Shown: in pieces, positions 1 through 7,484 of the stretch
Numbering within the stretch: the stretch's first letter is position 1
Layout: the number at the start of each line of letters is the position of its first letter
IMG/VR virus record: IMGVR_UViG_3300021255_000114
Coordinates: 167,942 to 231,941 of that record
Length of the DNA stretch: 64,000 nt
DNA from: a virus
Lineage: Duplodnaviria; Heunggongvirae; Uroviricota; Caudoviricetes
Strand: one strand, 5' to 3'
Translations under genes and position numbers: made by a program
The notes under the pieces: generated by a model
What the model saw: only the letters and a program-made list of their open reading frames with translations
Told to the model about the DNA's origin: nothing
Databases searched by the model: none

Positions 1-1062
1 AAAGAACTAGTTGAGAAATACAACGTAACGTCAAAAATTTTTATTACCAAATTACTTGGTAATAAAAAGAGAAGTTTATCAGAGGCTGCTAAACTTGCAC
101 ATAAAAAGAAACCTGAGAAATTTAAACTGAGTGAAAAGGCTAAAGATAAAATAAGAACTGCACGTTTAAAATTCATGAAAGAACATCCAGAACAGACCGC
201 ATGGAGACAAAAAAATGAATCATATCCGGAGAAGTGTTTCATTAAAATGTTATCAGATTATGGGTTTGATAAAAAGTATTTGATATATAAAGAATATTCT
301 GTATTCCCGTATTTTATAGATTTCGCTTTTTTTAATGAAAAAGTTGCGGTGGAAGTTGATGGTTCTCAACATTTAGAACCCGAAAGGGCTGAAAGTGACA
401 GAAAAAAAGACCTTCTTTTATTGAATAATGGGTGGTATGTTATTCATTTTACCGCTACAGATGTTGTGAAGAATCCTTCTATGATAGCTGAGAAACTAAA
501 CGAATTTATTTCAAATAAAATGACGTGTAAAGTTGAAAAAGTTGGGATATTAAAAGCACCAAAAACGAGACAACCGGTGCCAAGAGAAGAGAATGGCAGA
601 ACTGCGAAACAAAACAAAAGCGCTTATAAAAGCAGAAAAGTAATGAATAGGCCGTTAAAAGATGAACTTTTTAAAATGGTTTGTGAGTTACCTTTTATGG
701 AAATTGGGAGAAAATATGGTGTCGATGGAAACACCATAAAAAAATGGTGTAAAAATTATGGATTACCATATAAAAAAAGTGACATTGATAAAATAATAGG
801 TAAAGAGCACCCATACAAAAAGCGCGAGATTATTTGTGATAATTGTGGAAAAAAAATTATCACTGATAATAAAGGTGGACGTTTCTGTTCGGTGAATTGC
901 TGTAACGAATATAATAGAAAGCACCCAAATGAATCAATAACACTAAGACGTAGACATATCATAAAAAATACACCTAACGGTGTTTTAACAAAACGCGTTA
1001 GTGAGGATGAATTGCAACAATATCTCGATGATGGGTGGGTAATTGGAAGGAAATTTAAATAA
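1..1062 (+). CDS. Homing-endonuclease-like protein (DUF559/Vsr-like nuclease, HTH, Zn finger), 5' truncated by window edge
   Basis: Frame open from base 1; IDFAF...AVEVDGSQH nuclease motif, KKWCKNYG HTH, CDNCG/CSVNC; directly upstream of a tRNA-like RNA. Confidence 0.75.
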   Translation, partial: KELVEKYNVTSKIFITKLLGNKKRSLSEAAKLAHKKKPEKFKLSEKAKDKIRTARLKFMKEHPEQTAWRQKNESYPEKCFIKMLSDYGFDKKYLIYKEYSVFPYFIDFAFFNEKVAVEVDGSQHLEPERAESDRKKDLLLLNNGWYVIHFTATDVVKNPSMIAEKLNEFISNKMTCKVEKVGILKAPKTRQPVPREENGRTAKQNKSAYKSRKVMNRPLKDELFKMVCELPFMEIGRKYGVDGNTIKKWCKNYGLPYKKSDIDKIIGKEHPYKKREIICDNCGKKIITDNKGGRFCSVNCCNEYNRKHPNESITLRRRHIIKNTPNGVLTKRVSEDELQQYLDDGWVIGRKFK

Positions 1063-2789: not shown

Positions 2790-3134
2790 TGGCTGACTAG
2801 GTTGAAGGTAGGACGGCATACCCGGTGTCGCATAATCCGGAATCATCGAGAGGTGTATCCGGGTTCAAACAGGTGTCGTTGATAGACACAGGAACGCATG
2901 TAAGACTTCAGTTCGAATCTGAACGGGTCCACGATGTCACGTAGGAATGAATCCAGGACATGAAGGTCGCGGCCACCTTAAGGTCGTATTTGGGCTCGAC
3001 TTGGCTTTGATTGCGTGTTAGTATGGTGTAAGGAGATGTCTGCTAGTTGTTTAAATGGCAACACAAACTATCGTTATGCAATGGCTGCCTGATATTGGCA
3101 CCCAAAGCGAGTTGGCCACGAACTAAATCGTGGC
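2790..3134 (+). ncRNA. ssrA: Circularly permuted (two-piece) tmRNA
   Basis: Acceptor piece ends TTCAG-TTCGAAT-CTGAA-CGGGTCC-A (2907-2931); coding piece starts GGGCTCGACTTGGCTTTGA at 2992 (G3:U70); tag GNTNYRYAMAA* at 3057-3092 after TTAAAT; 2790-2798 pairs with 3110-3118. Confidence 0.9.
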
Positions 3135-3141
3135 AAATTTC

Positions 3142-3215
3142 GGTGCGTTAGTTCAGCTGGCTAGAATGCCGCCCTGTCACGGCGGAGGTCATGGGTTCGA
3201 GTCCCATACGCACCG
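3142..3215 (+). tRNA. tRNA-Asp(GTC)
   Basis: Full cloverleaf, loop CT-GTC-AC. Confidence 0.97.
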
Positions 3216-3550: not shown

Positions 3551-3890
3551 GCTCTGGTGGCGGAATGGTAGACGCGAGGGAGAAGCGAAAGAAAGCGGAG
3601 TCCCTCCTGTTTTGGAAACAAGACAGTAAAAAATTGGATGAATTCGGCTGAAGGTTATGGGATCCGGAGGGCGAGCCAAGCATCAGATATATTTGATGAA
3701 GGTGTACAGACTACCTGAGCAGTTTAATCTGCTTAATAACAGGAAGTAGTTGCAATTAGTATTGCAATGAAAAAGCGTCCAATATTACCTAAACCCAAGT
3801 TGGGTATGGTACGAAGAGATAGTCGATGTTGATAACAGCTTAAAATCCCTTGCCCGCAAGGGCGTGTGGGTTCGAATCCCACCCGGAGCA
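3551..3890 (+). tRNA. tRNA-Leu(TAA) interrupted by group I intron
   Basis: Exons 3551-3581 and 3839-3890 join to AGGGA-CTTAAAA-TCCCT; acceptor GCTCTGG/CCGGAGC. Confidence 0.9.
3582..3838 (+). ncRNA. Group I intron (IA-like, P7.1/P7.2), no ORF
   Basis: P3 TTGGATG/CGTCCAA, P7 GACTA/TAGTC, GAATTCGG and GAGCCAAG core, J8/7 GAAGAGA, terminal G. Confidence 0.9.
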
Positions 3891-5456: not shown

Positions 5457-5576
5457 GGTCTGATAGTTTAGTGGTTAGAATAACGTAATTATGGCTTCTG
5501 TATATGGAAGCATTGCAGCAATTATAAAATTTAGCCAGTCACGCCGTAGACGGAAGTTCGATTCTTCCTCAGACCT
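5457..5576 (+). tRNA. tRNA-Asp(GTC) with 48-nt insert (5486-5533) in anticodon stem
   Basis: Removing insert gives ACGGC-CAGTCAC-GCCGT; acceptor GGTCTGA/TCAGACC. Confidence 0.85.
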
Positions 5577-5643: not shown

Positions 5644-5763
5644 TTCGGTGTAGTGTAACAGTAGCACGACGATTGAATATGGCTTCTGCTTATGGAAACC
5701 TCACAGCAAACGATATCAATGCTATGGGAGCCGTTAGTGGCTGTGCAATTCAGCCCACCGAGA
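5644..5763 (+). tRNA. tRNA-Pro(TGG) with 49-nt insert (5672-5720) in anticodon stem
   Basis: Removing insert gives ACGGC-TATGGGA-GCCGT; acceptor TTCGGTG/CACCGAG. Confidence 0.85.
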
Positions 5764-5770
5764 CAAAATG

Positions 5771-5901
5771 GACGATGTAGCTCAATTGGATTAGAGCACG
5801 TATTTCATGGCTTCTGTTTTACGGAAACCTCACAGCAAATAATGTCAATTTATGGTCTCTTAAACCCGTGGTTGTCGGTTCGAGTCCGGCCATCGTCCCC
5901 A
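5771..5901 (+). tRNA. tRNA-Lys(CTT) with 53-nt insert (5801-5853) in anticodon stem
   Basis: Removing insert gives CGGGT-CTCTTAA-ACCCG; acceptor GACGATG/CATCGTC; encoded CCA. Confidence 0.88.
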
Positions 5902-6231: not shown

Positions 6232-6315
6232 CAAAACAAGAAACACACGTCAGATATGTATGCTGATGAGAAAACCATTATCGTTGGCGCCGGCGGTGTG
6301 AGTGTGTTTCAATTT

Positions 6316-6391
6316 GGCTGGGTGGCGGAATTGGCAGACGCGCCACACCAAGGATGTGGTTTTTCTGTGGGTTCGACTCCCACCCCGGCTA
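6316..6391 (+). tRNA. tRNA-Leu(AAG), C33, short variable region
   Basis: CCACA-CCAAGGA-TGTGG; Leu-type D arm. Confidence 0.8.
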
Positions 6392-6403
6392 CACAGATAA
6401 ATT

Positions 6404-6516
6404 GATTGTATTACATAATGGTAATGAGGTGAGAGAAAAGGAGACGTTACGAACCTCGTTGAGAGGGAGTTGAATGAATATCCGCTGCGGTATCGGTTCG
6501 AATCCGATTGCAATCA
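6404..6516 (+). ncRNA. Expanded tRNA-like RNA, purine-rich centre
   Basis: Acceptor GATTGTA/TGCAATC; D arm CAT-AATGGTA-ATG; T arm ATCGG/CCGAT; 22-nt loop in anticodon position. Confidence 0.7.
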
Positions 6517-6640
6517 CGTGAAAAGGTGTAGAGTTTATTAAGAAGTTTCTTTCTTAGTGCACCAACAAGCCTTGCGGAAATCGATTATATCAAAAATGTA
6601 CATATCCGTTGCAAGGATGACCCAAATGAAACTTCAACCT

Positions 6641-6717
6641 CGGGCTGTATCTCCTCTCCCTGATAAGGAGTAGAAAGAGTAGTTGGTTACACGTTGGTTC
6701 GACTCCAACCAGCCCGA
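6641..6717 (+). tRNA. tRNA-Ile(GAT)-like, D arm absent/relocated
   Basis: Acceptor CGGGCTG/CAGCCCG; CTCC-CTGATAA-GGAG; AGTTGGTT loop 3' of anticodon arm. Confidence 0.82.
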
Positions 6718-6794: not shown

Positions 6795-7484
6795 ATGATT
6801 ATGGATAACAAAGAATATTTGAACAAAAGAAATTACACTAATTTTAAGAACGCAAGAAAACGTTTAAAAGAAAGACTTGTTGAATATAAGGGAGGAAAAT
6901 GTGAAATTTGTGGATATAATAGATGTATTAGCGCTCTTGAGTTCCATCATCTTGATCCTTCCCAGAAAGATTTTGCAATTTGTAGCGGTGATGTTAAATC
7001 GTATGAAACGATGCGAAAAGAGGTGGATAAATGTATTTTAGTTTGTGCTAATTGTCATAGAGAAATACATGAAAAAGAACATAAAGAAATTGATAGGAAG
7101 TATCTTGAAGAGGAGAAACGGATATTGGCAGATATAATGGTTCAAAGAGAAAACGGAAAACATTGTAAGATTAAGAATTCCTATGAAATATTAAAGTATA
7201 CAGACGTTTTTAAAGATATTGAGAACGGTATGCCAAGAGAAGAAATTTTTAAAAAGTATCACATAAACAACAAAACGTTTAACAAGTTTCTTAAAGAAAA
7301 CAACATCAATTATTTTAACGCCAACCGAGCGTTAATAAAACCAACTAAAGAAGAACTTGAGAAACTTTTAAAAACGAATTCTAAAACAAGTATTGGTCGT
7401 ATTTTTGGTGTTTCTTGTGGTGCTGTTATAAAATGGTGTAAAAAATATGAAATACCATTAAAAGAAGATAAGGAAAAAGAATAA
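6795..7484 (+). CDS. HNH homing endonuclease
   Basis: CEICG...LEFHHLDP...VCANCHREIH; C-terminal HTH. Confidence 0.88.
   Translation: MIMDNKEYLNKRNYTNFKNARKRLKERLVEYKGGKCEICGYNRCISALEFHHLDPSQKDFAICSGDVKSYETMRKEVDKCILVCANCHREIHEKEHKEIDRKYLEEEKRILADIMVQRENGKHCKIKNSYEILKYTDVFKDIENGMPREEIFKKYHINNKTFNKFLKENNINYFNANRALIKPTKEELEKLLKTNSKTSIGRIFGVSCGAVIKWCKKYEIPLKEDKEKE

Follow-up and report, generated by a model that had tools for sequence, protein, structure and literature searches.

The window analysed here is a 64,000-nt stretch of a tailed-phage genome (IMG/VR record IMGVR_UViG_3300021255_000114), a source record of 372,793 bp that has direct terminal repeats and is rated 100% complete. Within a long tRNA cluster lies a split tRNA-Leu(UAA) gene (3551–3890, plus strand), whose two exons, 3551–3581 and 3839–3890, when ligated give a standard tRNA-Leu(UAA) with the anticodon stem AGGGA/UCCCU and a 7-nt loop. 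The splice points A3581|G3582 and G3838|C3839, which a sequence-only reading had proposed, proved exact, and the same 257-nt insert was called independently by ARAGORN in intron mode as i(32,257). The exons, the intron and its structural elements are as follows.

3551–3581, plus strand: 5′ exon of tRNA-Leu(UAA), positions 1–31, last base A31 (sequence, ARAGORN)
3582–3838, plus strand: group I intron of 257 nt between A31 and C32 (ARAGORN, blastn, Rfam)
3576–3606, plus strand: P1, exon 3576–3581 with guide 3601–3606, top pair A3581–U3601 at the predicted 5′ splice site (fold, covariation)
3582–3599, plus strand: variable P1 loop or extension (fold, family comparison)
3600, plus strand: invariant guide G, mostly unpaired before the first step, pairing with C32 of the 3′ exon in P10 (family comparison, local folds)
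3607–3626, plus strand: P2 with GAAA loop at 3615–3618, its distance to the guide U being 14 nt, against 13 nt in most relatives (fold, register)
3634–3640, plus strand: 5′ strand of P3, partner 3776–3782 (fold, alignment)
3644–3674, plus strand: P4, J4/5 and P5, with mismatch G3647·G3671 in P4, J4/5–J5/4 GA/GA, and docking adenines A3651 and A3668 kept (alignment)
3675–3703, plus strand: P6 and P6a (alignment)
3707–3713, plus strand: 5′ strand of P7, with bulged A3708 and guanosine-binding pair G3709–C3824 (conserved in 34/34; flanking pair covaries G-C/C-G)
3714–3743, plus strand: P7.1 with conserved A-rich bulge (alignment)
3749–3768, plus strand: P7.2, confined to the subgroup of the window copy (fold, alignment)
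3786–3811, plus strand: P8, with an 11-nt-type GAAA receptor read from sequence and a 3-nt insertion before P8 (3782–3784 region) (fold, alignment)
3812–3825, plus strand: J8/7 and 3′ strand of P7, the S element (alignment)
3827–3838, plus strand: very short P9 and omega-G (G3838) (sequence, family comparison)
3839–3890, plus strand: 3′ exon, running from C32 to the discriminator base A73, without an encoded CCA (sequence, ARAGORN)

Compared with shuffled sequences the intron fold had z = −4.3, and the minimum free energy structure of the region contains P1, P2, P3, P4, P6a, P7.1, P7.2 and P8. Among the group I hallmarks, the P, Q, R and S elements, a P3–P7 pseudoknot with P4, P6 and P8, the guanosine-binding site, omega-G and P1/P10 were all found, while the U·G wobble at the 5′ splice site, a near-universal group I trait, is absent. 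Subgroup IA is recognized by one or more extra stem-loops, P7.1 and P7.2, between P7 and P3′, and these stem-loops are present here. A blastn search matched the intron to crAss cr116_1 (79%, E 7e-16) and to the S-PM2 psbA intron (76%, E 5e-5). With the Rfam model Intron_gpI (RF00028; cut-off 50), the window copy scored 17.7 bits (E 0.007) and two homologues 65.6 and 46.8 bits; a scan of the window missed the intron, and a whole-genome scan detected it below the cut-off. P9 of the window copy is minimal, has no stable fold of its own and comes without P9.0.

Two other classes were rejected. Against a group II intron stand the start GAAGC in place of GUGYG, a first base that varies in the family, the 3′-terminal G and the absence of any Rfam group II hit; against the classical tRNA-Leu(UAA) intron (Leu.3Ug, IC3) stand the insertion at 31/32 instead of U34/A35 and the anticodon left intact in the 3′ exon. 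The longest stop-free stretch is 44 codons and no intron-encoded ORF was found in the window copy; no second intron of the same kind was detected in the phage genome by blastn or nhmmer, and no promoter or terminator signals rose above chance.

Other features were observed in this tRNA region. A permuted, two-piece tmRNA at 2842–3215 (ARAGORN; Rfam RF04321, 52 bits) runs into tRNA-Asp, and three tRNA-like genes (5457–5576, ~5648–5763 and 5771–5898) carry anticodon-arm inserts of ~50 nt with a common conserved motif. Free-standing nuclease-like ORFs lie at 175–1062 and 6795–7484, one belonging to the DUF559/REase family and another HNH-like by eye, though not so named by Pfam/NCBIfam.

Related introns in other tRNA-Leu(UAA) genes

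The search pattern used on viral, metagenome and genome collections was anchored at the S element and the 3′ junction alone, which left the 5′ site free. It yielded 48 distinct introns of 220–258 nt, along with one of 344 nt; every one interrupts tRNA-Leu(UAA), and their common layout indicates that the window intron is not a chance pattern. The first search pattern included the terminal G; three further members, found by P4-motif patterns alone, again lie at 31/32 of tRNA-Leu(UAA) and have omega-G. No long introns were found among the family matches, the 3′-anchored patterns being such that ORFs in P9 are excluded. Among the carriers are phage contigs, the longest of 363 kb, as well as two Curvibacter species in culture and several bins of betaproteobacteria; when 401 genomes from the Curvibacter class were sampled, no other match resembling a tRNA 3′ exon appeared. 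The nearest relative, L174 on a metagenome contig, is 90% identical to the window copy, the other members 53–68%; as the family sequences are related, the counts given below do not represent independent events. In the tree, the family falls on one side of a branch with support 71/97, consistent with, though no proof of, a single origin.

In the alignment of 34 members, almost every position of P3, P4, P6, P6a, P7 and P7.1 keeps its pairing in 34/34, with changes on both sides of the helices, and the guanosine-binding pair is invariant (34/34). The earlier suggestion of a phage IA-type intron, made from P7.1 and P7.2, held in part: P7.1 is present in the whole family, whereas P7.2 is found just in the window copy and two close relatives of the 34, and the family is also bacterial. 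Two core positions set the family apart from other introns: J4/5 begins with G, not A, in 44/46 members versus 2/55 (a count whose parser required both P1-contacting adenines), and pair 4 of P4 is a G·G mismatch in 46/46 versus 5/55. The two P1-contacting adenines vary little or not at all among the aligned members and appear kept. The P4 mismatch was rejected as unique to the family or as proof of adaptation, since five other introns share it, mostly in capsid-like genes and with U·G where checked. Loci L366, L367, L368, L369 and L382 (and L370, L373) hold group I introns of this kind, mostly in capsid-like genes, with the P4 G·G and a G at −13.

Might the family splice while the window copy has decayed, or become very slow, the phage relying on the tRNA-Leu(UAA) of its host? 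The minimal P9 without P9.0, the Rfam score and the textbook dispensability of many phage tRNAs would fit such a reading. We nevertheless regard it as improbable, because all core pairs are intact, L174 has the same design, the exons give a good tRNA, and the complete phage genome, in which TTA is used ~1,060 times, offers no convincing tRNA-Leu(UAA) besides the split gene. The window intron is real and conserved, and probably functional, although the minimal P9 and missing P9.0 may make it slower than its relatives.

The surroundings of the split genes were compared for a possible helper. If the junction lies at 31/32 but a protein were required, either as a folding or docking cofactor or as a cutting and joining enzyme, the loss of the U·G docking pair, a P1 as short as 4 bp in most of the family and the minimal P9 of some members would find an explanation. 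Yet no neighbour gene is common to more than 6/46 loci, members turn up in phages and bacteria that are unrelated, and the conserved guanosine pocket, omega-G, P9.0 and both docking adenines fit ribozyme chemistry, which leaves dependence on a protein with only a slim chance. About ten loci have free-standing HNH genes close to the split tRNA, none adjoining the window gene; we guess that these genes are candidates for spreading the intron in trans. Examples are L079 2928–3533 (plus strand) and L187 7660–8481 (minus strand), HNH genes (Pfam PF01844) near split tRNA-Leu, with related ORFs in L200, L211, L385 and L208 and another upstream group in L156, L157, L169 and L204. In L151 and L164, a second group I intron with G in the −13 register lies within a few kb of the A31 intron.

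The predicted 5′ splice site and the register of P1

The 5′ exon, its last five bases counted from the D arm, ends in A31 in 48/48 members, and the guide reads G-U-C in 48/48. The claim of an A-U pair at the 5′ site was thereby borne out: A3581–U3601 sits on top of P1, A31–U recurs in all 48 relatives, and the homologue search for the splice-site pair revealed no wobble. The guide at 3598–3606 also spans the ligated exons as had been read, 3601–3606 pairing with 3576–3581, while G3600, A3599 and G3598 can pair with C3839, U3840 and U3841 (P10). The first intron base is G in 18, U in 17, A in 13 and C in none of the members.

Covariation supports P1 beyond the splice-site pair. Across the 48 members, position 28 and the guide form G-C in 37, C-G in 9, A-U in 1 and U·U in 1, and L155 shows an extra A29–U change matching the guide; position 27 is usually mismatched, so that P1 has 4 bp in most members and 6 bp in the window copy. 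The family guide G-U-C-C covaries with the anticodon stem. Because it copies tRNA positions 39–42, P1 and the anticodon stem are mutually exclusive, and partition-function folding preferred P1 in 45/48 precursors.

To place the A-U pair relative to the core, we used the distance to the GNRA loop of P2. In 31/32 comparison introns, namely the other group I introns among the collected loci with a GNRA-capped P2, a G stands 13 nt before this loop, and in the psbA, tRNA(CAU), tmRNA and capsid-gene cases, checked by eye, it faces the last U of the exon. At the same −13 position, 39/44 family members have U opposite A31, while in the remaining 5/44, including the window copy, the U facing A31 is at −14. 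Three extra bases at the foot of P8 were found in 5/5 of the −14 members and were absent from 33 of the 34 scored −13 members; the five form one clade (support 100/96). One incomplete locus, L183, has −14 but no P8 insertion. These register data put the A-U pair where other introns have their wobble, and the invariant guide G one base further on.

At the other end, P9.0 joins the two bases preceding omega-G to the two that follow P7 in 38/48 members, as AU/AU, GU/AC, GG/CC or AA/UU, three of the non-pairing members being parsing errors. This pairing and co-change just before G|C32 is, judged from the aligned sequences, the P9.0 context of omega-G. Given the 3′ site G|C32, a 7-nt loop requires the 5′ cut after A31. 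Junctions shifted to G30|G (intron ending in A) or to one base further, before U33 (intron ending in C), were rejected, as both lose omega-G and its P9.0 context.

A cut one base further 3′ needs separate weighing, in which the first intron base would pair with the invariant guide G, as U·G where it is U, and the tRNA would have an 8-nt anticodon loop. The invariance of the guide G speaks for it, as do the 17/48 members with U opposite, both Curvibacter copies among them, and the canonical intron Mga42.Leu.1Ug, which is related, has U32·G and lies at 32/33 with a nearly identical guide. In local folds, the guide G is paired with +1 in 7/48 members and unpaired in 31/48. However, 31/48 members, the window copy included, begin their intron with G or A, and the family guide G stands at −14 or −15, in contrast to −13 in the comparison introns and in Mga42.Leu.1Ug. 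An 8-nt loop, looked for among intron-less alleles of related genomes, occurred in 0/34, and all 34 read GGA-CUUAAAA, the predicted junction; moreover, an enlarged-loop tRNA as the sole tRNA-Leu(UAA) would, from textbook knowledge, decode UUA poorly. We therefore consider the shifted cut most improbable and retain the cut after A31. Since the next P10 position beyond the guide G pairs in just 36/48 while the G itself is invariant, sequence conservation hints at a role of this G beyond P10.

The two Curvibacter species bear on whether the junction would be used. UUA is decoded only by a tRNA-Leu with U34. A search of the draft assemblies of C. microcysteis RS43 and C. cyanobacteriorum HBC61 with three patterns brought up no other tRNA-Leu(UAA). 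TTA is rare (21 of 113,520 codons in a 320-kb sample), and dxr has it at codon 363. With no tRNA-Leu(UAA) found besides the split gene, and with TTA used in dxr, correct splicing is probably needed in both species. The gene adjoins tRNA-Gly(GCC), as do 5/6 intron-less orthologues examined; bin G003 has a probable second tRNA-Leu(UAA) copy. The Curvibacter split tRNA (L217 6948–7276, L221) has the stem AGGGA, most close intron-less relatives GCGGA, and in HBC61 (L524, 1969 onwards) an integrase-like ORF follows it; the original tRNA gene may have given way to a version brought in by a mobile element.

Relatives, predicted splicing pathway and meaning

The introns of S-PM2 psbA and cr116_1 are 76–79% identical to the core over 70–100 nt and share the A-rich bulge of P7.1 and the G-binding site, and cr116_1 has P7.2 as the window copy does. 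Both, however, lie in protein genes and have a Watson-Crick P4 and AA/AA J4/5, with a U·G 5′ site in S-PM2, whereas the window intron has a tRNA host, an A-U site, G·G in P4 and GA in J4/5. F-CphI adjoins the S-PM2 intron, much as free-standing HNH genes lie near some split tRNA-Leu loci. The best bacterial BLAST relatives outside the family are the tRNA(CAU) 36/37 introns of the Curvibacter family (L362–L365; E 1e-22 to 4e-10), which have the same P2 register and core and differ by a U36·G site, a Watson-Crick P4 and AA/AA J4/5. These introns (~1460–1730) are of IA type with P7.1 in tRNA(CAU), the classical Ile2 intron being listed as IC3. Canonical U·G group I introns were also seen in apparent T loops of phage tmRNA-like genes (L249, L253, L322, L348). 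Phage tRNA-like genes in L282 (near 6300–6700) and L290 (near 90–350, minus strand) have an extra structured insert before a group I intron and then a short anticodon-like piece, and are possibly doubly interrupted.

The classical cyanobacterial and plastid tRNA-Leu(UAA) intron (Leu.3Ug, IC3) and Leu.3Cg have the same host gene, omega-G and a similar size. They differ by position 34/35, a U·G pair (C-G in 72 Leu.3Cg cases) and an IC3 core without P7.1; their precursors can form the anticodon stem, which in the family competes with P1. Closer in position is Leu.1Ug (Mga42.Leu.1Ug; Williams 2020, bioRxiv 10.1101/2020.01.27.920355), which lies at 32/33 of tRNA-Leu, one base from the family site, and resembles the window copy in subclass, P7.1 and P7.2, a short P9 and GAGUCCG before the GNRA hairpin. 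It departs from the family in having U32 at −1, 13 nt between guide G and loop, AA/AA in J4/5 and a P4 that is Watson-Crick. An ancestor like Mga42.Leu.1Ug may have given rise to the family by a slide of one base, which would explain the invariant G; no 32/33 sister introns in viral contigs were found among the matches listed.

Taken together, we consider it highly likely that the window intron is functional and of IA type, that it belongs to a distinct group I family, probably of single origin, and that it splices at A31/C32 by the standard two steps, with A31 as both the leaving and the attacking nucleotide. In the precursor, the guide, mimicking tRNA positions 39–42, would form P1 by capturing the 5′ half of the anticodon stem, and the GNRA loop of P2 would bind P8 in a ruler-like manner, setting A31–U where other introns set U·G. 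Free guanosine in the conserved P7 pocket would attack after A31; omega-G would then enter the pocket while the invariant guide G pairs with C32 in P10, and exon joining would yield a normal tRNA with a 7-nt loop, whose anticodon stem re-forms to release the product. GTP use, the two-step chemistry and product release are taken over from knowledge of group I introns, and the basis of the explanation here is positions, conservation, covariation, register and the sole-copy status in two bacteria.

How such a P1 would dock is less clear-cut. In the Tetrahymena intron, the amine of G22 binds A207 and contributes 2 kcal/mol or more to docking, which is lowered ~100-fold when the pair is a Watson-Crick G-C (PMC13692252); in the Anabaena intron, the guide must end in NNG (PMC12355055). 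The guide U of the family has no amine like that of G22. Candidate substitutes for the G22–A207 contact are G113 in J4/5, the P4 G·G mismatch and the unpaired guide G; as G·G also occurs in introns with U·G, neither the J4/5 G nor the P4 mismatch can be counted as a demonstrated compensation. The family may instead accept weaker docking, leaning on a rigid P2–P8 ruler. More tentatively, and with some doubt, we entertain a rebuilt docking site, in which the guide G or G113 replaces the wobble-G contact and allows efficient protein-free self-splicing after a Watson-Crick purine; if so, the core could be reprogrammed for cutting after A.

In Williams 2020 (bioRxiv 10.1101/2020.01.27.920355), position 0 (31/32) was among eight tested sites, −1 was scored as U or C only, and U/G accounted for 98.5% of calls, the sole exceptions being Leu.3Cg (72) and four errors; the four 'error' calls could contain the A(−1) class. 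A 2025 database discards introns without the U (PMC11835236), and for trans-splicing ribozymes the U(−1) requirement is described as a major constraint (PMC13692252). The literature searched, to which few subscription papers belonged, yielded no account of an A(−1) group I class. Judged from sequence comparison, the family seems to be a variant of group I introns that runs against the near-universal 5′-site rule, with predicted splicing after A. Intron catalogues overlook a class, U-less introns being filtered out or only U and C listed. If splicing after A is confirmed, the textbook U rule would be broken and RNA-editing tools could widen, with the family as a possible starting point for A-targeting RNA-repair and circularisation tools. 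A natural A-U family, conserved over ~55–90% identity, would provide a direct test of the purpose of the wobble pair, with two culturable bacteria that would have to splice after A to read UUA.
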